DNA from: Candidatus Woesebacteria bacterium RIFCSPLOWO2_01_FULL_39_23
GTDB lineage: Bacteria; Patescibacteriota; Microgenomatia; UBA8517
Assembly (NCBI GenBank): GCA_001793095.1
Contig: MGHG01000007.1
Location: forward strand, 1,306 to 65,305
Reading direction: 5' to 3'
Length of the DNA: 64,000 nucleotides
A program made the position numbers and the translations under genes. The notes beneath the pieces are model-generated. The model made no database searches, was not told the origin of the DNA, and was given only the letters and a program-made list of their open reading frames with translations. Below, piece by piece: positions 4,123 through 42,602 of the stretch; positions within the stretch are counted from its first letter, which is position 1; every line of letters begins with the position of its first letter.

Positions 4123-4905
4123 TCATGATTCTTTGAGCATGTTGTCTATCTCCGTTTTAAAGTTTTCGAATGGTAATGCTCCGGGAATTAATTTAGTTTT
4201 GCCTGTTTTTGTATCAAGCAGTATATTTCCGGGTGTTCCTGTTACACCGGCTTTTGCACCACTTTGGAAATCGCTTTCTACATGAGCTGCCGTCTTGCCA
4301 CTATCAAGACACGTCTTGAACGCACTTTGATTAAGGCCGACCTCACCTGCCAATTTGGGTAAATCATCCAGGTTCAAACCGTTATTGGAAGGGGTAACCT
4401 CAAAGATTTTATCGGTCAATTTCCAGAAACCATCATTACCCGCCAGTTCATATGCACACTCGGTAGCCTCAGCCTCTTTATCTGCTTTTTGATGGATTTG
4501 GTCTAATGGAAAATGCCTATAAACCCAAGCAACCTGACCTTTATATTCATCAACTATTTGTTTAGCAGTTGGATGAAATCTCTTGCAGAATGGGCATTCC
4601 AAGTCTGAATATTCAATTAGAAGCATCCTTGCATTCTTATCGCCTCTTACATGATCGTCGTTTCTCAACTTATCAACTTGGTCAGCATTACCGAAGGAAG
4701 GCTGAACTCCTCCTGCAGCTGGTTGTCCTCCTTGAGCACCTCCGGCGGCTCCAGCTTGTGTTCCGGCGATACGTGTGGTTCCACCACCTTCCAAGTTTTT
4801 GACTTTCTGCCAAAGCATTCCTACTGCAAAAGCAAGTCCAATTGACGCAACAAGAAGAATTGGAACTAATTTTTCAAGAAGATTACTCTTAGACTTTAAT
4901 ATCAT
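4123..4905 (-). CDS. DsbA-like thiol:disulfide oxidoreductase (thioredoxin fold, CPFC active site), membrane-anchored
   Basis: LIEYSDLECPFCKRFHP, with an N-terminal TM and a Gly/Ala/Gln-rich linker. The track start at 4932 is TTG. The ATG at 4905 (MILKSKSN...) is the more likely start. Confidence 0.8.
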   Translation of the reverse strand: MILKSKSNLLEKLVPILLVASIGLAFAVGMLWQKVKNLEGGGTTRIAGTQAGAAGGAQGGQPAAGGVQPSFGNADQVDKLRNDDHVRGDKNARMLLIEYSDLECPFCKRFHPTAKQIVDEYKGQVAWVYRHFPLDQIHQKADKEAEATECAYELAGNDGFWKLTDKIFEVTPSNNGLNLDDLPKLAGEVGLNQSAFKTCLDSGKTAAHVESDFQSGAKAGVTGTPGNILLDTKTGKTKLIPGALPFENFKTEIDNMLKES

Positions 4906-7195: not shown

Positions 7196-8887
7196 ATGGA
7201 AAACAAACTAATATACGTCCAGTATTCAAGAAAATCATCAGAGTCTAGAGAAAAACAGGCATTATCTATTGATGAACAAAAAGAAGAGTGTGTAAAACTT
7301 GAAAAATTATTGGACTTGAACATCCCCTACAAATTAGAAGAATCCCGTTCCGCATACAAACCAGATAATAGACCTGAATTTGATAAGCTGATTTCATTAA
7401 TAGAAGCTGGAAAAGTAAATGCCATACTAACCTGGAAGCCTGATAGGCTTTGCCGTAATCCAAAAGAAGGTGGTTATTTACTCCAATTACTACAAGGTGG
7501 TGTCTTAAAAGAGATTCGGTGTGCTGATGGTGAAACTTATACTCAAGATTCAGACCATTTAATACTCCAAATTCATTTTGGCATGGCAAACCAATACTCA
7601 AGAAATTTAAGCAAGAATGTAAAACGCGGGAACAGCTATAAGTTCTTAAATAACAAACAATGGCTTGGTCCCGCTAAACCAGGGTACTTGAATGCTCAAG
7701 AAGGTAAAGATAAGACAATAGTTGTCGATGAAGAACGTTATCCGATAATTGAAAAGGCTATTAGGTTGATTCTCTCTGGAACTCATACTCCGATGGAAGC
7801 TCTAAATGTGTTGAATAAAAAATTTGGATATAGGAGTCGGAAAACAAAATGCCAAGGTGGTAAACCAATGCATAAAAGTGGTTGGTATCGCTATCTGAGT
7901 GACCCGTATCTTTATGGTTTAATGAAGAGGAAAGAAGGAGAAGTTATGGGTGATTTCAAACCGATGTTATCTAAACCAGAATTTGACAGGTTGCAAATTA
8001 GGTTGGGTAGAAGAGGCACCAGAATTTCCAAGCACGAGATACCCTATCGAGATGTGCTCAAGTGTGGAAGCTGCGGTGGCACTGTATGTGGTGACGATAA
8101 ATGGCAAGTATATTGTCCTGCCTGTAAGGAGAAGTTTCATAAGGGGAAGAATACAACCGAATGTAAATACTGCCACACTCCAATTGAACGGATGAAAAAT
8201 CCTACAATCCTTCATTACGTTTATCTGTTCTGTACAAAAAATAAAAACCCGAATTGTACTCAAAAGATAATCTCGGTTAAAGATTTTGAGAAACTTGTTG
8301 ATGATGAGCTCCTAAAGTTTACAATTCCAGATTCTTTTCGTGATTGGGCTATCAAACACCTGAATAATTGCAACACGAAAGAGGTGGGAGATAGAGAAAT
8401 TGTCAGAACAAACCTAAAAACTGCTTATGATGACTGTGTAAAAAAGCTAGATAGCTTACTTAGTCTCAAAATCAGCCCACAGAATATCGATGGTTCGGTA
8501 ATATCTGATGAAGAGTACAACACCAAACGAAAAACGCTCCTTGATGAAAAGACCAGTCTACTGGAACAGATAAATGGAGTAGATAAGAGGCAGAATGATT
8601 GGATGGAATTATCCGAAAGAACCTTTGATTTTGCAGTTTACGCACGGCATTGGTTGGAACATGGAGACGCTAAACAAAAAAGCTCAATTCTTGCAGCTCT
8701 CGGTTCGAACATAAGGATAATGGACAAGAAACTGCTGATAACACGGCATAAACAGTATTTCTTAATAGAAAAAGGGGTAGGAGAAATTAAACAATTAGCA
8801 AGACAATTCGAACCTGGTAAAACACCCGTATTATCGGAGCATTTACTCTCTTTTGAGCCTATTCGTTCTGCTTGGCTGGGAGACTAG
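7196..8887 (+). mobile_element. Large serine recombinase (resolvase/invertase catalytic domain, recombinase domain, zinc ribbon)
   Basis: N-terminal YVQYSRKSSESREKQALSIDEQ with catalytic Ser, then the TWKPDRLCRN region, then Cys clusters (CGSCGG...C..C, C.YC...C). 563 aa. Confidence 0.9.
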
Positions 8888-8947
8888 GATTCGAACCTAG
8901 ATATACAGATCCAGAATCTGTAGTCCTACCGTTAGACGATCTCCCAA
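8876..8947 (-). tRNA. tRNA-Gln (anticodon CUG)
   Basis: Cloverleaf read on the minus strand: TGGGAGA / D-arm GTCT..GGAC / anticodon stem ACAGA-TTCTGGA-TCTGT / T-arm CTAGG-TTCGAAT-CCTAG / TCTCCCA. Its 3' end overlaps the recombinase stop codon. Confidence 0.85.
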
Positions 8948-9017
8948 TACAAAACTCTGATTAAATTCGATCTTTTAGGAATCTACGCCCGAAGCCTGTT
9001 TTAAAATATTTTTCTCT
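8929..9017. repeat. Direct repeat copy 1: the last 18 codons of the GIY-YIG gene, an intergenic spacer and the first 19 nt of tRNA-Gln
   Basis: About 80% identical to 9283..9371. Seen by eye alignment. Confidence 0.7.
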
Positions 9018-9197
9018 TTTGATTGCTTTATTCTTATCTAAACAAGCTTCATAATAAACCAATTTGATTGGCAACCGAAATTTAGTTGAACTAACTAGTC
9101 CTAATTTGTGTTTATTTACTCTTTTCTCAAGATCATTACTCCATCCAACATAGCGTTTACCATCTCTTTTACTTAACAGCACATAAGTATAATACAT
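8961..9197 (-). CDS. GIY-YIG nuclease-family small protein (YhbQ/UPF0213-like)
   Basis: MYYTYVLLSKRDGKRYVGWSNDLEKRVNKH...LVYYE...KREKYFK, the classic GIY-YIG core. 78 aa. Confidence 0.8.
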   Translation of the reverse strand: MYYTYVLLSKRDGKRYVGWSNDLEKRVNKHKLGLVSSTKFRLPIKLVYYEACLDKNKAIKREKYFKTGFGRRFLKDRI

Positions 9198-9282
9198 AAA
9201 CGCTTCCTACCCGCCCGCCATCGCAAGCCCTGGCCGCCTCGCACTGCTCAGTAAGCAGGTTGGCTCAGGCGTTGCGGGCAGG

Positions 9283-9371
9283 CCATTAGACGATCTCCCA
9301 ATACAAAACTCTGGCTAAATTCGATTTTTCAAAAATCTTCTTCCAAAACCCGTCTTAAAATATTTTTCTCT
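9283..9371. repeat. Direct repeat copy 2: a GIY-YIG 3' remnant (encodes REKYFKTGFGRRFLKNRI*), spacer and a 19-nt tRNA-Gln 5' fragment
   Basis: The minus-strand translation of the remnant keeps the same peptide as copy 1 with mostly synonymous changes (one D to N). The tRNA fragment TTGGGAGATCGTCTAATGG diverges after nt 19. Confidence 0.7.
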
Positions 9372-9399
9372 TTGAATTATACCAAAAATGAGGCTGGAG

Positions 9400-10050
9400 T
9401 TACATCGAGGCTTCGAGTTCCAAGTTGGTCAAATTTTTTACTATAAATTTTTGACTTTTCCGAAAGATTAACCCTTTGCTTTGTAGTTTTTCTATGGAGA
9501 TACTTGCAGTTTCTCGTGTAATACCCGCCAAATTTGCGATATCCTGATGCGTAAGGGGAATATCAATGAGAACATTTTTATTTTTGAAACTCTTCCCGAA
9601 TCTTTTAGCAGAAACTATAAATGCTGAGGCGACCCGTTTATATGCGTTACCGTAAAGTAGCTGTTGGGTAGTTGATAAAAGTCCATCCATGCCGACCAAA
9701 AGGCGCCTAGTCAAATCATACAAAACATCCGGGTTGTCGTTGATGAATTTTAGTGCATCTCCTCTTGTGGCTTTAAAAACTTCAGTTGAAGTCATAGCCT
9801 GATAAAAGTAAGCATTATCCGAATCAGCGATTGCCCATAACATTGGGAAGAATGCACCTTGTTTAAAAATATTAACAGTCAGCTCTGACCCGTTTTCGAA
9901 AATAGACGCCATTTTTACGTAGCCGTTTATCATATAAAAAACTCCAGGCGGTTCTTCCTCGGCTCTTATCAATATTTCACCTCGTTTATATGACTGAAGA
10001 ACGTGTTTAGAGAAAAAACCCAGTAATTTTTGATTAATATCTTTATCCAT
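9400..10050 (-). CDS. Crp/Fnr-family transcriptional regulator (cNMP-binding domain plus HTH)
   Basis: 216 aa. C-terminal HTH LTHQDIANLAGITRETASISIEKL with an N-terminal beta-roll. Confidence 0.85.
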   Translation of the reverse strand: MDKDINQKLLGFFSKHVLQSYKRGEILIRAEEEPPGVFYMINGYVKMASIFENGSELTVNIFKQGAFFPMLWAIADSDNAYFYQAMTSTEVFKATRGDALKFINDNPDVLYDLTRRLLVGMDGLLSTTQQLLYGNAYKRVASAFIVSAKRFGKSFKNKNVLIDIPLTHQDIANLAGITRETASISIEKLQSKGLIFRKSQKFIVKNLTNLELEASM

Positions 10051-13659: not shown

Positions 13660-16098
13660 ATGGAAAATCAGGTAACTAAAAATTTAAGAAGAATTCCCAT
13701 TGTCCCTATCCGGGGATCCGTTGTCTTTCCGCACACAGACGCTGTCTTGACCTTTGGCAGGAAAAAAAGTGTTGCCGCAATAAATAGCGCTTTTCAGGAA
13801 GATAAGGTTGTTGCGATATTTACACAAAAAGATCCGAGAATGGCTGAGCCTGGACAGGTTGATTTATACAAAGTTGGAACAATCGCGGTTATTACCCAGA
13901 TGATGTCGACAGAAGGTGAAATTCACGCAGTCGTTAAGGGACAAGTTAGAGTTAAGTTGGCTGAGATTATTTCACAGGAACCTTTTCTCGTGGGCATGGT
14001 CGAAGAAATTCCAGAGGAGTCTCCCCTAACCGATGAGGTAAAAGCACTGTCGAATAATCTCATTGAGCTCTTTAAGAAAGCGATTAATTTGGGAAAACAG
14101 GCTGAAATAATGACGGTTATGAATTTGGTTTCGGGTCAGCCCGAGGCATACCAGGTTGCCGACCAAGTGGCATCGCTTCTCGATATTAAAACTAGTGAAA
14201 AACAGCGACTCCTCGAAACCGTTCCAATGAAGAAACGCATTGATAAAATCCTTGAATATCTCGCACACGAGGTTAACGTCCTCGAGCTTGAGAAGACTAT
14301 TTCGACTAAAACCCAGCATAGATTTGAAGACCAAATGAGGAAAGCCATGCTTCGGGAAAAAAAGAAAACAATTGAAGAAGAGCTGGGTGAAGAAGAGCTG
14401 GGAGATTTATCTTCTGAAGAGGTTAAAACATATAGAAAGAAAATTAAGGCAGCAAGCATGCCCAGAGATGTTGAAGAAAAAGCCAGGAAGGAATTAGCCA
14501 GACTGATTCAGATGTCTCCCCACAACCCGGAGGGAGGCTACATCAGAAATTATTTAGATTGGCTGTGCGATATGCCTTGGAGTAAATTATCGCCCAACGA
14601 TGTGTCAATAAAACGTGCAGCAAAAATACTTGAAGATGATCATTATGGCTTAGATAAAGCAAAAGAAAGAATTTTGGAATATTTAGCCGTAATGAAAGTT
14701 AAAAGAGGATCTACCAAGAAATTGTTAAAAAGCGGAGATAAAGATGAAAGTCAACCGACAATTCTTTGTTTTATCGGCCCACCCGGAGTAGGTAAAACCT
14801 CAATCGGTAAATCGATAGCCAAAGCTTTAAAGAGAAAATTTGTTCGGGTTTCGCTTGGCGGTATTAGAGATGAAGCAGAAATAAGAGGTCATAGACGAAC
14901 CTATGTCGGAGCTCTTCCGGGGCGAGTTATTCAGGGGATTAAAAATGCTGGCACGAAAAATCCAGTCTTCATGCTCGACGAGATAGACAAATTGGGCGTC
15001 GATTTCAGAGGTGACCCGTCATCGGCACTCCTTGAAGCGCTTGATCCTGAGCAAAATAAGGAATTTTCAGATCACTATTTAGAAGTGCCGTTTGATCTGT
15101 CGCACGTCATGTTTATTGCTACAGGAAATGTTATGGAGAGTATTCCGGCTGCCCTAAAAGACAGAATGGAGATAATTAATTTCCCGGGTTATACGCAGGA
15201 TGAAAAGTTTAATATTGCCAAAAAGTTTTTATGGCCGAAACAACTTAGGCTGCATGGTCTGGCAGGAGAAAAACTTCAGATAAGTGATGCGGCTCTGAAT
15301 GAGATAATTGTTCGCTACACGAGAGAGGCGGGGGTAAGAAATCTGGAGAGAAATCTGGCAACAATTTGCCGAAAGGTTGCACGTTTTGTCGCCGAAAAGA
15401 AAAAGTTTTCTTTGACCTTAGACCTGCCCGAAGTCAGAAAGTTTCTCGGTCCTCAGAAATTTTCGTCATTAATTGCAGAGAAAAATGACGAAGTCGGTAT
15501 GGCAACGGGACTTGCGGTAACTGCGGCCGGAGGAGAGATTTTGTTTATCGAGGTAGCTTTAATGCCTGGTCGCGGTAAGCTTACCTTAACGGGACAGCTG
15601 GGCGATGTCATGAAAGAATCTGCCAAGGCAGCGTTTACGTGGGCTAAGGCTCACTGGAAAGAGTTGGGGCTAAAAGAAACTTTTGGTAATCGCATGGACG
15701 TACATATCCACGTTCCTGAAGGGGCTGTTCCGAAGGACGGGCCGTCGGCCGGAATTGCAATCACAACTGCACTAGTATCTGCTCTGACAGGAATACCGGT
15801 AAAAAGATATGTTGGGATGACGGGGGAAATAACACTTCGCGGCAGAGTGCTGGAGATTGGTGGCGTGAAAGAAAAAGTAATTGCGGGCCATTTAGCCGGA
15901 CTTAAAACAATTATTCTTCCGAAAGATAACGAAAAAGATATGGAAGACGTTCCCAAAAAAGTCAAAAAAGATATCAAGTTTATCTTTGCTGAACGCTACG
16001 ACGAGGTTTTGAAAATAGCTCTTAAAAAACTTCCGGAACCTAAAATTGAACAAGTTAAGAAAAGAGTTCCGTCTCCGAGCTACATTGCCACAGTTTAA
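13660..16098 (+). CDS. lon: ATP-dependent Lon protease
   Basis: LON N-domain, Walker A GPPGVGKTS and an S16 protease domain DGPSAGIAITTALVSALTG with Ser-Lys dyad context. 812 aa. Confidence 0.95.
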   Translation: MENQVTKNLRRIPIVPIRGSVVFPHTDAVLTFGRKKSVAAINSAFQEDKVVAIFTQKDPRMAEPGQVDLYKVGTIAVITQMMSTEGEIHAVVKGQVRVKLAEIISQEPFLVGMVEEIPEESPLTDEVKALSNNLIELFKKAINLGKQAEIMTVMNLVSGQPEAYQVADQVASLLDIKTSEKQRLLETVPMKKRIDKILEYLAHEVNVLELEKTISTKTQHRFEDQMRKAMLREKKKTIEEELGEEELGDLSSEEVKTYRKKIKAASMPRDVEEKARKELARLIQMSPHNPEGGYIRNYLDWLCDMPWSKLSPNDVSIKRAAKILEDDHYGLDKAKERILEYLAVMKVKRGSTKKLLKSGDKDESQPTILCFIGPPGVGKTSIGKSIAKALKRKFVRVSLGGIRDEAEIRGHRRTYVGALPGRVIQGIKNAGTKNPVFMLDEIDKLGVDFRGDPSSALLEALDPEQNKEFSDHYLEVPFDLSHVMFIATGNVMESIPAALKDRMEIINFPGYTQDEKFNIAKKFLWPKQLRLHGLAGEKLQISDAALNEIIVRYTREAGVRNLERNLATICRKVARFVAEKKKFSLTLDLPEVRKFLGPQKFSSLIAEKNDEVGMATGLAVTAAGGEILFIEVALMPGRGKLTLTGQLGDVMKESAKAAFTWAKAHWKELGLKETFGNRMDVHIHVPEGAVPKDGPSAGIAITTALVSALTGIPVKRYVGMTGEITLRGRVLEIGGVKEKVIAGHLAGLKTIILPKDNEKDMEDVPKKVKKDIKFIFAERYDEVLKIALKKLPEPKIEQVKKRVPSPSYIATV

Positions 16099-16553: not shown

Positions 16554-16628
16554 GGCCCCATCGTCTAGTGGCTTAGGACGTCAGGTTCTCATCCTGAAAA
16601 CTCGGGTTCGACTCCCGGTGGGGTCACC
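16554..16628 (+). tRNA. tRNA-Glu (anticodon CUC)
   Basis: GGCCCCA / D-arm GTCT-AGTGGCTTA-GGAC / TCAGG-TTCTCAT-CCTGA / T-arm TCGGG-TTCGACT-CCCGG / TGGGGTC-A. Confidence 0.85.
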
Positions 16629-16705
16629 GACCTACGCTAAAGCTTCGGCCGGCAGGCTAATATAAATAAAGGTCGTCGTCCGAAGCCTTGGCGAAGGATG
16701 AAAGT

Positions 16706-16942
16706 ATGCATTATGTCTACATACTGAAATTAAGTAATAACTCAAACTATGTAGGCCAAACATCTGATCTCAAAAATAGAATCAAAGATCACAACAAAGG
16801 AAATACAAATCACACCAAGAAATTCTTACCTGTTAAATTAATTTTCTATTGTGCTTTTGAATCAAAAAAGAAAGCATTAAATTTCGAAAAATATCTCAAA
16901 TCAGGGTCTGGAAAAGCATTTAAGAAAAAAAGATTAATATAA
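16706..16942 (+). CDS. GIY-YIG nuclease-family small protein (YhbQ-like), second copy
   Basis: MHYVYILKLSNNSNYVGQTSDLKNRIKDHNKGN...LIFY...KKKALNFEKYLKSGSGK. The track start at 16688 is TTG, so ATG 16706 is preferred. Confidence 0.75.
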   Translation: MHYVYILKLSNNSNYVGQTSDLKNRIKDHNKGNTNHTKKFLPVKLIFYCAFESKKKALNFEKYLKSGSGKAFKKKRLI

Positions 16943-30332: not shown

Positions 30333-32625
30333 TAATCAAGCTAGTCAAAAATTGTCATTTCCAATAATCGGGATGCACTGCGCGTCATGCGCCAGACTTA
30401 TAGAGAGGCAGCTCGTGCGAACACCCGGTGTTTTAAGCGCTGCAGTCAATTATGGGAGTGAAACGGCTTCGGTTGAATACACATCCGACGTAAAGGAAGA
30501 AGATTTAGCTAAAGCTGTAGAAGGAGCGGGTTATAGAGCGATATTAGACCAAAGGACAAAGGACAGAGGACAAAGGACATCGGATGAAATCAAAGAGGAG
30601 GCGAAGAAGAAAGAGATTAAGGAGTTAAAGCTGAAAGTTATAGTCTCTTCAATACTTTCGGTCCTTATATTCGCCGGAAGTTTTCCGGAATGGATTACTT
30701 TTGTACCCAAAATATTGAGTAATAATATTGTTCTATTTATACTCGCTACCCCCGTTCAGTTTTGGGCAGGATGGCAATTCTATTTAGCCACGAGATCAGG
30801 CTTGAAAAATAGAACTGCAAGTATGGATACGTTAATTGCAATCGGGACTAGTGCAGCCTATGGCTATTCCGTTTGGTCAATGATCTTTGGAGGAGACAAA
30901 TATTTTGACACTGCGGTAATAATTATTACCTTAATACTTCTTGGAAGATATCTTGAAGCCAGAGCAAAACTGCATACAAGCGATGCCATAAGGAAACTTT
31001 TAGCCCTTCAGGCGAAAACCGCACGCGTCATACGGGGGTCGACTGAAGTTGATATTCCTATCGAAGAAGTTAAAGTCGGAGATATAATCCGTGTAAGACC
31101 GGGTGAAAAAATTCCGGTTGACGGTGTTATAACGGAAGGAGTGAGCTCAATTGACGAATCTATGGTAACGGGTGAATCTATCCCTGTTGATAAGACTGTA
31201 GGCAATTCCGTTATCGGTGCAACAATCAATAAATCCGGAACCTTTTTATTTAAAGCTACAAAAATCGGCTCGGATACTATGCTCGCCAGAGTAGTAAAAA
31301 TGGTTGCCGAAGCGCAAAGTTCAAAAGCCCCTATTCAAAGACTCGCTGATGTCGTTTCGTCGTATTTCGTCCCGATAGTTTTAATTCTGGCAGTTCTGAC
31401 ATTTGTTATATGGTTTGACTTCAGTCCCATATCTTCCGAAGCATTCAAGCACGCATTTACGAATATGGTAGCGGTTCTTATCATCGCCTGTCCTTGTGCG
31501 CTCGGATTGGCAACGCCCACAGCAATAATGGTAGGTACAGGGAAAGGCGCTGAGCACGGAATACTGATAAAGGATGCAGAAAGTCTGGAAATCGCAAATA
31601 AAATAAAAACTATCGTTTTTGACAAGACGGGGACATTAACGGAAGGAAAACCAACCGTTACGGACGTTATTTCAAGTCAAAAGTTAAATGTCAAAAGTCA
31701 AAAGTTGTTACAGCTTGCTGCATCTCTTGAGCAAGGTTCAGAGCATTCGTTGGCGGAAACAATAATTAAAAAAACTCATAGCTTAAAACTTAAAACTCAA
31801 AAAGTAACTAATTTCAAAGCAATACACGGGATGGGAATCGAAGGGGAAATTGAAGGGAAAAAGTATATTTTTGGGAATAGAGCATTGATGGACAAAGAGA
31901 AGATAAATTATAAAAATCAGGAGTCAAGAATTATGAATTTAGAAGAAGAAGGTAAAACTGTAATGTTATTAGCCCTTCGACAAGCTCAGGGTAAACTATT
32001 AGGAATCATCGCCGTTGCTGACACTTTGAAGGCAAGTGCAAAAGATGCTGTAGCGATGTTACAAAAGAGAAAAATAGATGTTTGGATGGTGACTGGGGAT
32101 AATGAGCGGACGGCAAAAGCCATTGCTCGTGAAGCGGGTATTAACAATGTTTTAGCCGGAGTACTTCCTAATGAGAAGGCAAGTAAAGTAAATGAATTAC
32201 GAATAAAGAATAATGTATTAAGCAATTGGGATAATTCAAAATTCATTAAACATAATACTGAACCCGTCATCGCGTTCGTTGGTGACGGTATTAATGACGC
32301 ACCTGCACTTGCAGCGGCGGATGTGGGAATTGCAATGGGCAGCGGGACAGATATTGCAATGGAGTCGGCTGGAATTACTCTCTTGAACCGTGATTTAAAT
32401 AGTGTGGTTTCGGCAATTGAGTTAAGCAAAAAAACTCTCAATGTGATAAAACAAAATCTTTTTTGGGCCTTCGGATACAATATTGTTTTAATACCCGTTG
32501 CAATGGGGGTTTTATACCCCTTTTTCGGTTGGCTTCTTAACCCTGCAATAGCAGCATTTGCTATGGCTGCCAGCTCCATTTCCGTCGTCGGGAATTCCCT
32601 TCGGCTGAAAAGTGTTAGACTTTGA
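30310..32625 (+). CDS. copA: Copper-translocating P1B-type ATPase
   Basis: N-terminal [16 protein letters not shown] motif [19 protein letters not shown], and the GDGINDAP hinge. 771 aa. Confidence 0.95.
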
Positions 32626-39830: not shown

Positions 39831-42602
39831 GTGATGTTGAAGCTATTTTCAAAATTTCTTGACGTTAATCAAAAAGAAATAGATAAGTTACAAAAAACGG
39901 TCGATAAGATTAATACTTTTAGCGACAAAACTGGTAAATTAAAGGACGAGGATTTTGCGAAAAAAACTGAAGAATTTAAAAAGCGATTTACAAAGGGTGA
40001 AACCTTGGACGATATTTTACCCGAAGCTTTTGCATTAGTCCGGGAAGCTGCTTGGAGAAGGGTTGGTATGAGGCCGTATGATGTTCAGATGATGGCAGGT
40101 ATTGCGCTTTACCAGGGAAAAGTCGCCGAGCAAAAGACGGGAGAAGGTAAAACTCTTTCTGCCGTACCCGCTCTTTATCTCCGTGCATTAACGGGTAAAG
40201 GTGCACACTTAGTTACGGTTAATGATTATCTGGCAAGACGAGACGCGGGCTGGAATGCGCCTATATTTAGCCTTCTGGGGATGAGTGTCGGGGCTATTGT
40301 CCAGGAAATGAAGTCCTATGTCTTTGATAGTGAGTATAACGATACAAGTCATGGAGATGAGAGACTTGCGCACTTAAAACCGGTAGATAGGAAAGTGGCA
40401 TATTCGGCGGATATAACCTACGGGACTAATAATGAATTCGGGTTTGATTATCTAAGAGACAATATGGTTTCGGCGCTTTCTGAGATGGCTCAAAGCCACC
40501 GGTCCGGAGGGACCTCTGGCCCGGAGGGGGAGCATTATTTTGCTATCGTTGACGAGGTAGATTCAATACTAATCGATGAGGCGAGGACGCCCTTAATTAT
40601 TTCTGCACCGGATACTGAACCGACCGATAAATATTATAAATTTGCTTCTCTTGTTAGCCAATTAAATCCCGATACGGATTTTACAATGGACGAAAAGTCC
40701 AAAAGTGCTTCCCTAACTGAGCATGGAATTACCAGAGTCGAGAAGGTTTTGGGGGTAGATAATCTTTACGAAAAGGATTTCGATGCCATCCACCACATAG
40801 AAAATGCCCTGCGTGCCACAACTCTATATTTAAGGGATAGAGAATACGTTGTTAAAGATAACCAAGTTATTATCGTTGATGAATTCACAGGACGGCTTAT
40901 GTTCGGACGTCGCTGGAGTGACGGACTTCACCAGGCTGTTGAAGCTAAAGAGGGAGTTAAAATACAACAGGAAAGTAAGACACTTGCGACGATTTCTTTT
41001 CAGAATTACTTCAGAATGTATGACGTTTTATCTGGAATGACGGGAACCGCGGCTACCGAAGCCGAGGAATTTAAAAAAATATACGATATTGATGTCATCG
41101 TAGTTCCGACTCATCGGGAGATGGTAAGGAAAGATAATCCCGATGCAATTTATAAGACATTACGCGGGAAATACGGGGCTATCGTTAAAGAGATTGAAGA
41201 TAAGAATAAAAAAGGCCAGCCGGTTTTGGTGGGTACGACTTCAATTGAGAAAAATGAAATTATAGACGACTATCTCAAGCGGAAGAGAATTCCCCACAAT
41301 GTTCTCAATGCGAAAAACCACGAAAAGGAAGCGACGATAATTGCTGATGCAGGGAAGCCGGGAGCGGTTACCGTTGCAACGAATATGGCTGGGCGCGGGG
41401 TAGACATCGTACTTGGAGGTTCTCTTCCGGACAAACCAGAGGGGATGACCAACGATAAGTGGCAAAAGTCCGCTGAAATTAAGAGGTGGAAAGACTTGCA
41501 CGAAAAAGTTGTTAAAGCCGGAGGACTCCATGTAATCGGAACCGAACGGCACGAATCCCGAAGGATTGACAACCAACTTAGAGGCCGTTCCGGCAGGCAG
41601 GGAGACCCAGGTTCATCGAGGTTTTATTTATCCCTTGAGGATGACTTGATGAGAATTTTCGGCGGTGAACAAATTGGTAGCCTGATGGACAGACTGCACT
41701 TACCTGAAGATCAACCTATCGAAAACAGGTTTGTTTCTAAAGCAATAGAATCTGCGCAAAGTAAAGTTGAGGGATTCCATTTTGATGCCAGAAAGTCACT
41801 TGTTGAATACGACGATGTTAAAAATCAACAAAGAGAGATTATCTATAACCTAAGAAGGCGAGTTCTGGAATCCGATAATTTGCACGTTGAAATAAATGAG
41901 AAAATTTCGAAAGAAGTAGATGTGATTTTGGCGGCGAGTGCGGACTTAAACGGGGATGCAATCGATTATGAAAAATTGGTAGTTGGATTGTCCGAAATTG
42001 TTCCGTTTGATGATGCTTCAAGGGACAGAGTCAAAAAGGAAGCATTAAAAATTGGGCAAGATGGAGAACTGAAAGAATTTTTAGACAAGGTTGTAAAAGA
42101 TGTTTACGGCTCCCGCGAAAAACAAGTTGGAGTCGACGTCATGAGACAAATTGAAAAGTTTGCCTACCTGGGAGCGATTGATCACATGTGGATAGATCAT
42201 CTTGATAATATCGACAGCATTGAAGATGCTGTCAAACTTCGCGGATACGGACAAAGGGATCCGTTGGCTGAATTTAAAAATGAGGCGTTCGGACTATTCG
42301 AAGGACTGATTGACAGGATTGACCAGGAATTATCAAGGCGAATATTCAGGATTGGCGTCTCAAGAATACCCCAACCCGAAATTCCTATTTCGCAAGCGAG
42401 AACAAACGTTGATCAACTCGATCAGACAGGATTGGCTCCCGCTCCTGAAGATTTGGTTGCACAAGCAGGTGAACCCGCATATGCAGAACAAAGTATTAAC
42501 AACAAAGGACAAAGTGTGAAGAAAAAGATCGGACGAAACGATCCATGCCCATGCGGGAGCGGGAAGAAATACAAGAAGTGTCATTATCCGCAATATGGGT
42601 AA
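39831..42602 (+). CDS. secA: Preprotein translocase ATPase SecA
   Basis: DEAD-like motor (QKTGEGKTL, DEVDSILIDEARTPLIIS), preprotein cross-linking domain, and a C-terminal zinc finger CPCGSGKKYKKCH. 923 aa. Confidence 0.95.
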   Translation: MMLKLFSKFLDVNQKEIDKLQKTVDKINTFSDKTGKLKDEDFAKKTEEFKKRFTKGETLDDILPEAFALVREAAWRRVGMRPYDVQMMAGIALYQGKVAEQKTGEGKTLSAVPALYLRALTGKGAHLVTVNDYLARRDAGWNAPIFSLLGMSVGAIVQEMKSYVFDSEYNDTSHGDERLAHLKPVDRKVAYSADITYGTNNEFGFDYLRDNMVSALSEMAQSHRSGGTSGPEGEHYFAIVDEVDSILIDEARTPLIISAPDTEPTDKYYKFASLVSQLNPDTDFTMDEKSKSASLTEHGITRVEKVLGVDNLYEKDFDAIHHIENALRATTLYLRDREYVVKDNQVIIVDEFTGRLMFGRRWSDGLHQAVEAKEGVKIQQESKTLATISFQNYFRMYDVLSGMTGTAATEAEEFKKIYDIDVIVVPTHREMVRKDNPDAIYKTLRGKYGAIVKEIEDKNKKGQPVLVGTTSIEKNEIIDDYLKRKRIPHNVLNAKNHEKEATIIADAGKPGAVTVATNMAGRGVDIVLGGSLPDKPEGMTNDKWQKSAEIKRWKDLHEKVVKAGGLHVIGTERHESRRIDNQLRGRSGRQGDPGSSRFYLSLEDDLMRIFGGEQIGSLMDRLHLPEDQPIENRFVSKAIESAQSKVEGFHFDARKSLVEYDDVKNQQREIIYNLRRRVLESDNLHVEINEKISKEVDVILAASADLNGDAIDYEKLVVGLSEIVPFDDASRDRVKKEALKIGQDGELKEFLDKVVKDVYGSREKQVGVDVMRQIEKFAYLGAIDHMWIDHLDNIDSIEDAVKLRGYGQRDPLAEFKNEAFGLFEGLIDRIDQELSRRIFRIGVSRIPQPEIPISQARTNVDQLDQTGLAPAPEDLVAQAGEPAYAEQSINNKGQSVKKKIGRNDPCPCGSGKKYKKCHYPQYG

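Follow-up and report, generated by a model that had tools for sequence, protein, structure and literature searches.

A small GIY-YIG nuclease gene, a partner palindrome and a duplicated tRNA-Gln 5′ end in a Woesebacteria genome: a probable selfish cassette that gives its target gene a new 5′ end

We describe a compact unit at the tRNA-Gln(CTG) gene of Candidatus Woesebacteria bacterium RIFCSPLOWO2_01_FULL_39_23, located in a 64,000-nucleotide stretch of its genome (the window), in which a gene for a 78-residue GIY-YIG nuclease lies between a broken and an intact copy of the same tRNA. Read on the minus strand from 9384 to 8873, the unit begins with an extended −10-like box, TGGTATAAT (9376–9384), followed by the last 18 codons and the stop codon of an older GIY-YIG gene (9315–9371), a 14-nt spacer (CCAGAGTTTTGTAT, 9301–9314), nt 1–18 of tRNA-Gln (TGGGAGATCGTCTAATGG, 9283–9300) and a G+C-rich imperfect palindrome of 73 nt (CCTGCCCGC...GCGGGCGGG, 9210–9282). 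Beyond the palindrome, and read directly from the sequence, are nt 19–23 of the tRNA (TAGGA, 9205–9209) and a leader, AGCGTTT, which forms the 7 nt before the start codon (9198–9204). The intact stand-alone nuclease gene (8961–9197) is then separated by 14 nt (8947–8960) from the intact tRNA-Gln(CTG) (8873–8946), which was detected by ARAGORN and by the Rfam tRNA model (62.2 bits). The whole of 8873–9384 is probably transcribed as a single unit, and a small selfish cassette that dwells in tRNA genes would have built it.

The 14 nt between the stop codon of the nuclease gene and the tRNA contain no promoter-like box, and a promoter scan found none between the gene and tRNA-Gln; TGGTATAAT is the sole promoter-like box of the unit. 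It was read directly, having been missed by the promoter consensus scan because it has no −35 match. The box sits exactly at the end of the repeat homology described below, and boxes of the TGnTAWAAT type precede homologous genes or tRNA fragments at other loci. TGGTATAAT is referred to here as the putative promoter of the whole unit.

A repeat search identified one long direct repeat in the window, in which 8929–9024 matches 9283–9378 over 96 nt with 83% identity and a spacing of 354 nt. Copy 1 comprises the 3′ end of the intact gene, the spacer and tRNA nt 1–18, and copy 2 the gene remnant, the upstream spacer (1 nt different from 8947–8960) and the tRNA fragment, which agrees with the intact tRNA at 17 of 18 positions. 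A first interpretation made without database searches (the sequence-only reading) had already reported a direct repeat of 92 nt with the end of the gene and the start of the tRNA, and its second copy (9283–9371) falls inside the one delimited here. It had also described the remnant as a mostly synonymous variant of the intact C-terminus, which the codon comparison bears out: copy 2 encodes (I)(Q)REKYFKTGFGRRFLKNRI-stop on the minus strand, where ...REKYFKTGFGRRFLKDRI-stop closes the intact gene, and the 18 remnant codons differ from the intact gene by 10 synonymous and 1 non-synonymous (D to N) changes. The stop codon is TAA in the intact gene and TAG in the remnant. A tblastn search of the window recovered the remnant at 9377–9318 (E = 8e-8, 90% identity to residues 59–78) and no further remnant of a GIY-YIG gene. 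As the divergence of the remnant is almost purely synonymous, both copies of the nuclease gene were functional until recently; this would mean that the first 60 codons of the older gene were lost in a recent deletion.

The sequence-only reading had named a mis-joined repeat as one finding that would overturn it. At least 24 contigs from independent assemblies (JGI, NCBI and ENA; the NCBI copy being GCA_001792575.1, from the same Woesebacteria bacterium) contain this locus, and six copies of it show no differences over 700 nt across the element; the repeat is therefore real and not the product of a mis-join. An attachment-site duplication is suggested by the neighboring gene for a large serine recombinase (7196–8887, plus strand, 563 aa), which has a Resolvase domain and weak XisF/Ccr-like matches, and the last 15 nt of which overlap the tRNA-Gln 3′ end on the opposite strand. 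However, the duplicated part consists of the tRNA 5′ end and the nuclease 3′ end, on the side of the tRNA away from the recombinase, and the window holds no second copy of the tRNA-Gln 3′ end and no recombinase attachment repeat. We give hardly any credence to an origin of the repeat in the recombinase or in faulty assembly. The recombinase may instead mark a separate integrated element at the tRNA 3′ end. A displaced 3′ part of tRNA-Gln was also sought downstream of the intact tRNA, where the best alignment was not significant (83 of 500 shuffles scored as high). This alignment, a T-loop-like repeat (TTCGAACC, 8806–8824 against 8889–8907) within the recombinase gene and 83 nt from the real T-loop, had been considered as a tRNA 3′ remnant and was rejected as a chance match.

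The displaced tRNA fragment is not a simple truncation. It consists of 23 nt with a clean insertion of 73 nt, the palindrome, between nt 18 and nt 19 in the D-loop, so that nt 1–23 of tRNA-Gln are displaced while the whole tRNA lies downstream. In this respect the sequence-only reading has to be revised on several points. The tRNA copy does not break off after nt 19, but resumes with TAGGA past the insertion; it was not internally deleted; the G+C-rich segment taken for a spacer is a conserved imperfect palindrome that adjoins homologous genes in dozens of genomes; and the unit is not ordered as tRNA, spacer and gene, but as a palindrome-split tRNA 5′ fragment, the gene and the intact tRNA. 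The insertion point is shared by tRNA-Gln(CTG) loci of distant lineages. We use L-numbers for the homologous or palindrome-bearing loci from other genomes and metagenome contigs that were compared with the window; in L008, L038, L047 and L054, as in the window, the palindrome follows TCTAATGG, and TAGGA comes after the palindrome in the four of these sequences that were read through at this point, namely the window, L008 (TAGGACAAC), L038 and L047.

The protein encoded by the intact gene matches Pfam PF01541 over residues 1–69 with E = 1.5e-15 and 57.6 bits, against a cut-off of 22.6. Among 30 homologs, Tyr5, Tyr16, Gly18, Arg26, His30 and Glu62 are invariant, as is a basic C-terminal motif, KTGFGRRFLKxRI. 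Based on alignment to UPF0213 and I-TevI, we take these six residues to be the catalytic-type residues of GIY-YIG enzymes (Tyr, Tyr/Gly, Arg, His/Tyr and the metal-binding Glu). The AlphaFold model (pLDDT, the predicted local distance difference test, of 96.5) consists of a three-stranded sheet with helices, and its closest solved folds are all GIY-YIG: UPF0213 (1zg2), Slx1, the catalytic domain of I-TevI and the N-terminal domain of UvrC. UPF0213 1zg2 is also matched in sequence (E = 6.7e-5), and Foldseek superposes the model on 1zg2 and Slx1 with template modeling (TM) scores of 0.66–0.71. Profile, residues and predicted fold together place the protein in the GIY-YIG nuclease superfamily. 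It lacks the architecture of a classical homing endonuclease, in which a catalytic domain is joined to a C-terminal DNA-binding domain in ∼200–250 aa; the TIGR01453 model (group I intron endonucleases of the I-TevI type), taken to represent GIY-YIG homing endonucleases of full length, gives only 22 bits against a cut-off of 56.

The palindrome at 9210–9282 has a G+C content of 66%, compared with 38% for the background. Throughout the family its ends are fixed (CCYGCCYGC ... GCRGGCRGG), and it occurs in either orientation relative to the open reading frame (ORF). The two arms differ systematically, with ...GC-AACGCC in one and ...GC-CA(T)CGCA in the other, and 23 of 42 sequences have a mismatch at arm position 10. 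They pair at 76.6% of positions in register, compared with 37–43% when the register is slid, whereas covariation between the arms is not above that of shuffled sequences (48/500). Thus, the segment is a conserved DNA palindrome rather than a structure kept by compensatory changes. The folding energy of the G+C-rich segment is no better than that of shuffles (z-score −0.67), a test that is uninformative for sequence so rich in G+C, and a search of 8700–9500 against Rfam 15, whether run with the gathering threshold or with E ≤ 10, returned the tRNA only, with no match to the palindrome.

A scan of one genome per species yielded 80 loci that encode proteins 55–73% identical, mostly in Patescibacteria, also known as the Candidate Phyla Radiation (CPR). 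A tRNA on the same strand starts within 35 nt past the ORF in approximately 40 of the 80 loci and within 250 nt in approximately 55, while we estimate that only ∼0.05% of random positions would have a same-strand tRNA that close. At least 14 tRNA identities are linked to the gene. Most tRNA-linked loci also carry, upstream of the ORF, the 5′ part of the same tRNA with the acceptor-stem bases of that particular genome, split cleanly by a palindrome that has the same ends. Such a fragment was found automatically in 30 of 42 tightly linked loci and by eye in more; in the automated test, some low values of which are spurious, the insertion lies after tRNA nt 5–22, the tRNA resumes for 5–18 nt, and the start codon follows 1–29 nt further on.

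Several variants were seen among the homologs. At tRNA-Lys loci (L007, L019, L043, L051, L084 and L210) a TGnTAAAAT box belongs to the nuclease gene itself, the palindrome is placed between gene and tRNA, abutting tRNA nt 1–3, and the upstream tRNA fragment is absent. Homologs from outside the CPR (L064, L070, L086 and others, from Planctomycetota, Terriglobia and Bacteroidales) are not linked to tRNAs and are preceded by different hairpins (GGCAGGGC...GCCCTGCC-like), hinting at other palindrome partners. Among viral contigs, a single homologous locus was found (L210), and carriage by phages is unsupported. Most homologous proteins are encoded on contigs of ∼1–2 kb, and several of the called homologs have N- or C-terminal extensions that are translated palindrome (...PPATPEQA..., ...AGSRGGRV). 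Broken assemblies and distorted gene calls are probable consequences of these elements.

Other loci preserve stages that are degraded in the window. L028 contains two tandem units, each consisting of a tRNA-Pro fragment, the palindrome, the rest of the fragment and the ORF, ahead of the tRNA-Pro gene. The two fragment-plus-palindrome segments are identical over 75 nt, while the two ORFs share 73% identity and differ synonymously at 36 codons and non-synonymously at 16. L028 is the window locus in its undegraded form, and further tandem units are present in L012, L029, L036 and L059. Target ends are duplicated at protein genes as well. In L211, codons 1–11 of an epimerase gene are followed by the element, 5 nt more of the gene, 32 nt and a complete gene copy, the two copies differing at synonymous sites; in L058, 40 nt from the beginning of a glycosyltransferase gene are repeated on either side of the element. 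L212 (1400–1850) is a mirror image in which the 3′ end of a gene for superoxide dismutase is affected: a replacement tail (KEVERRFT-stop) precedes the nuclease gene, after which come the palindrome, a repeat of 19 nt and the original tail (PEVSRRL-stop). By these comparisons, duplicated target ends are the rule and no peculiarity of this window.

A resident tRNA gene is split by a palindrome-bounded segment with a second tRNA in L037, L071, L021 and L057. The nested tRNA has the same anticodon as the resident and a different, self-consistent acceptor stem. The split lies in the D-loop or anticodon arm of the resident (for L037 in the anticodon loop, for L021 close to the anticodon stem). In L037, L071 and L057 the acceptor strands of one resident half still fit those of the other, while the resident 3′ part of L021 has decayed. 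The nested tRNAs are foreign DNA that was inserted, not duplicated in place. Within the arms around the nested tRNA, which is intact, there is no nuclease gene in L037 (2990–3200), L071 (1760–1940) or L021 (1060–1215), in which tRNA-Thr, tRNA-Val or tRNA-Ile is split.

These loci bear on the first option of the sequence-only reading, that the window arose by plain tandem duplication of the gene, spacer and tRNA followed by two deletions, with an immobile gene and an unrelated palindrome. Palindromes are known to promote slippage, and tandem units do exist, L028 with its two complete units being just such an array as had been proposed. Nevertheless, the same layout of fragment, palindrome, gene and tRNA recurs in many lineages at all these tRNA identities and at protein genes, the tRNA copy of the window is interrupted by an insertion instead of being deleted, and elsewhere foreign tRNAs with different acceptor stems replace the residents. 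We therefore regard duplication in place as improbable. The second option, a mobile cassette that copies its flanks, fares better, since the repeated gene 3′ end and tRNA 5′ end are best read as two successive units.

A function for the host, with a housekeeping nuclease co-transcribed with tRNAs, the palindrome serving as a hairpin for RNA processing or stability and the fragments being by-products, would account for the strong purifying selection implied by 55–74% identity of the protein among very distant CPR lineages, for the fixation of the unit in the population, for the absence of a promoter between gene and tRNA, and for the G+C-rich stems that flank some tRNAs. It is difficult to reconcile with tRNA partners that differ among genomes, with multiple, nested and degraded copies, with the disruption of protein genes by insertions, with a palindrome that is found in both orientations without covariation, and with the many homologs on very short contigs, which are typical of repeated elements. 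This explanation, too, we judge to have little chance of being correct.

The association of the palindrome with the nuclease gene was tallied for the 66 palindromes contained in ∼300 kb, in loci picked for the presence of the gene. The palindrome lies at most 63 nt upstream of a GIY-YIG ORF in 46 cases, at most 87 nt downstream in 14 and elsewhere in 6, two of these 6 being false positives; 60 of the 66 therefore adjoin homologous genes. At six loci (L030, L031, L035, L058, L211 and L213) the ORF lies between both arms. When the element of L030 is deleted in silico, one unbroken PDDEXK_3 (PD-(D/E)XK) domain results (positions 2–115 of the 117 in the profile, E = 3.9e-40), and the insertion was therefore precise. 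The target of L031 was tentatively considered an AbrB-like gene, a guess that Pfam did not confirm and that was dropped.

Palindromes with the same ends but no gene are 35–81 nt long and were found alone beside a tRNA (L135), in intergenic DNA (L151) and in-frame in protein genes (L152). The metagenome scan with the 15-mer CCCGCCCGCAACGCC was dominated by chance matches in high-G+C contigs, and only these three loci were useful. L152 (contig Ga0209751_10000396) has two palindromes of 47–48 nt in-frame in coding genes, near 210 and 10928, one of them in a cysteine-desulfurase-like gene (...GHHCAQPLMSVLGI[DPPATPEQAQDLRWRTG]AACRVSFGVYNT...), in the manner of a Rickettsia palindromic element. Judged by their shared ends, the short palindromes look like miniature derivatives of the arm-gene-arm element. 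[quoted passage not shown] No target-site duplication is present at the arm ends, where the interrupted tRNA or gene sequence continues cleanly, and no transposase of a known class is encoded, the sole protein being the GIY-YIG nuclease domain.

These features raise the possibility of a true transposon, with the arms as terminal inverted repeats at which the GIY-YIG protein cuts, and with arm-bounded units that hold the nuclease gene, a tRNA or neither and are excised and inserted at breaks; in the window, a gene-less miniature copy would have landed beside an immobilized gene. The precise arm-gene-arm insertions in protein genes (L030, L031 and L213), the short gene-less copies in coding regions (L152) and between genes (L151), the arm-tRNA-arm units within tRNA genes, the fixed arm ends in both orientations and the systematic mismatch at arm position 10 are all as expected for such an element. 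Against this stand the lack of target-site duplications at the arms and the chemistry of the enzyme: GIY-YIG enzymes hydrolyze DNA and are not known to carry out strand transfer. Furthermore, all three arm-flanked tRNAs lie in tRNA genes of the same anticodon, which speaks for homology or selection and against free transposition. A transposon also leaves unexplained why part of the target gene is duplicated next to the insertion, and the gene of the window lies outside the arms. We consider a transposon unlikely, though clearly a stronger candidate than duplication or host function, and the miniature-copy account of the window is likewise doubtful.

The explanation that we favor, and think probably correct, is a selfish endonuclease cassette that puts a replacement 5′ end on its target gene and that, in the window, has done so in two serial invasions; we infer its mobility and its cleavage activity from sequence comparison. 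Across the loci compared, the cassette family occupies the 5′ part of its target, in most cases a tRNA gene but at times a gene for a protein. What was natively the 5′ end stays behind as a dead upstream fragment, nearly always split by the palindrome, and a complete copy of the target lies directly downstream. Foreign replacement copies, as well as serial and nested units, are evident among these sequences. The nuclease would break an unoccupied target gene, and repair would bring in the cassette along with a new end for that gene, as in the mobile endonuclease ORFs of mitochondria. Without a promoter of its own here, the nuclease gene would be expressed by read-through from the promoter before the fragment, and RNase P would cut the tRNA out of the joint transcript. 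A second occupation of a tRNA-Gln that already bore a cassette would have produced the 96-nt repeat, and a later deletion would have left only the 3′ end of the older gene.

The palindrome would be the element's own inverted-repeat module, whose full-length relatives hold the gene between the arms. It could be a terminus of the element, a site that the nuclease binds or cleaves, an mRNA 5′ hairpin, or a breaker of the direct repeat, which might otherwise delete the cassette. The distance from palindrome to cassette is short and fairly constant (5–18 nt), which suggests that the palindrome and the junction are mechanistically coupled. A more far-reaching reading is that the 78-aa protein and the palindrome represent an unrecognized class of prokaryotic mobile element, with a bare GIY-YIG domain as mobility enzyme and with autonomous (arm-gene-arm) and miniature (arm-arm) forms; we regard this as possible, with the odds against it. 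Insertions in essential genes would, on that equally tentative reading, be made harmless by the built-in replacement gene end or whole tRNA. In a bolder version of it, the transcribed module of fragment, hairpin and fragment might guide the nuclease to the gene that it matches.

Several observations weigh against the selfish cassette that we favor. A Pfam search of the 78-aa protein finds a catalytic domain only and no DNA-binding domain, and the choice of site is therefore unexplained. The gene tree follows tRNA type only partly, and the regenerated tRNA shows no visible protection from being cleaved again. The junctions of the nested tRNA cassettes resemble simple insertions and not homologous exchanges. 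No unoccupied tRNA-Gln allele or polymorphism was found via the exact neighbor protein, the population copies being all identical. With regard to the palindrome, both covariation and folding energy leave an RNA role seemingly unsupported; the gene lies outside it in the window and at most tRNA loci, so that its link to the full-length forms is one that we infer; and, because the tallied loci were picked for gene presence, the frequency of lone palindromes cannot be read from the counts.

The window contains a second, related unit on the plus strand (16554–16942), composed of an intact tRNA-Glu(CTC) (16554–16628), a palindrome (16631–16697) and a GIY-YIG paralog (16706–16942) of 78 aa that is 43% identical to the first. 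The palindrome is a different G+C-rich sequence with an A+T-rich loop (−32.8 kcal/mol) and starts within 2 nt of the tRNA-Glu. No tRNA remnant was detected downstream of this second nuclease gene, including by an Rfam search. The 64 kb of the window contain two tRNA genes, both of which have a GIY-YIG gene of this kind as a neighbor. Other islands of at least 62% G+C (4690–4795, 15691–15752, 30369–30428, 40464–40554 and 41341–41409) are probably coding.

If the favored explanation is correct, tRNA genes of the CPR/Patescibacteria, which have tiny genomes and make up a large share of bacterial diversity, are routinely colonized by a selfish unit of ∼350 nt that hijacks the tRNA promoter and overwrites the 5′ end of the gene. 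This would explain many orphan annotations of GIY-YIG family proteins, tRNA pseudo-fragments and contig breaks in CPR genomes, and would open a route by which lineages could exchange tRNA alleles. The system would also offer a minimal pair of nuclease and palindrome with a recognition rule that could be tested in vitro.

The cassette shares individual features with several known systems. Integrative elements that target tRNA genes are kilobases long, use integrases and regenerate the tRNA gene, the duplicated portion being the 3′ part. The window unit is similar in that a partial tRNA copy regenerates the gene, with a direct repeat of the tRNA at the far end; in contrast, the 5′ part is duplicated, the unit measures ∼350 nt and it encodes no recombinase, the serine recombinase lying on the other side of the tRNA. 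Integrase-type integration therefore does not describe it. UPF0213/YhbQ and the nuclease domain of Slx1 are its nearest matches in sequence and fold and likewise consist of a single catalytic domain, but UPF0213 has no known link to tRNA genes or palindromes, and Slx1 requires its partner Slx4 and cuts branched DNA.

Short mobile palindromes offer a second parallel. Rickettsia palindromic elements are short mobile palindromic repeats, and the palindrome described here is also short, G+C-rich and imperfect, in an A+T-rich genome, and occurs in RNA genes, in intergenic DNA and in-frame in protein genes (L152). Further repeats of this kind are the GC clusters of yeast mitochondria (PMC4478555) and the repetitive extragenic palindromic (REP) elements with their REP-associated tyrosine transposases (RAYTs) (PMC2817692). 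Pairing of a palindrome with a single protein gene is common to REP/RAYT and the present family, although the partner here is a GIY-YIG nuclease and not a tyrosine/HUH transposase. The palindrome also belongs to another sequence family than these short repeats, is present in low copy (one in this 64-kb window) and is tightly coupled to a nuclease gene and to tRNA genes.

SegB of phage T4 is a free-standing GIY-YIG homing endonuclease encoded in a tRNA gene cluster (PMC2330249). It shares with the cassette the GIY-YIG catalytic fold and a location among tRNA genes, and the spread of Seg genes by cleavage of the homologous locus and repair that co-converts the flanks is what we envisage for the cassette. 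However, Seg proteins are ∼200–250 aa long with DNA-binding modules, and their genes leave the tRNA gene unsplit, with no duplicated tRNA fragment and no partner palindrome. In rRNA genes of the CPR, GIY-YIG genes occur in non-intron insertions (PMC11270868); the group of organisms and the residence of GIY-YIG genes in structural-RNA genes, outside introns, are the same, but that study concerns rRNA genes only and mentions neither tRNA genes nor palindromes nor duplicated gene ends. While mitochondrial mobile endonuclease ORFs, SegB and these rRNA insertions are known, a tRNA-linked replacement of the 5′ end with a palindrome was not found described and is apparently new: a literature search, which was incomplete and leaves room for a prior description, found no account of tRNA genes occupied with replacement of their 5′ end and a partner palindrome.

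The closest analogue of the cassette is the mobile endonuclease ORF (mORF) of mitochondria, which carries a replacement terminus for its host gene and displaces the native one, as in atp6 of Allomyces and in atp6, atp9, cox2 and nad3 of Glomus (PMC3630166). In both, a free-standing endonuclease gene (LAGLIDADG or GIY-YIG) lies in a host gene that is kept whole by a replacement end, the native end persists nearby as a displaced fragment, and the element is co-transcribed with the host gene, as would be the case for the window unit. The superoxide dismutase 3′ end of L212 has exactly the mORF layout. Foreign origin of the replacement end is clear at L057, L037 and L071 from the acceptor stems and at L211 from synonymous differences; in the window, fragment and intact tRNA differ by only 1 nt in 18. 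The window cassette differs from mORFs in that it resides in a bacterium, its usual target is a tRNA gene, the 5′ end is replaced, the nuclease has only 78 aa and no DNA-binding domain, and a conserved G+C-rich palindrome accompanies it. With these differences, it would represent a bacterial counterpart to the mitochondrial mORFs.

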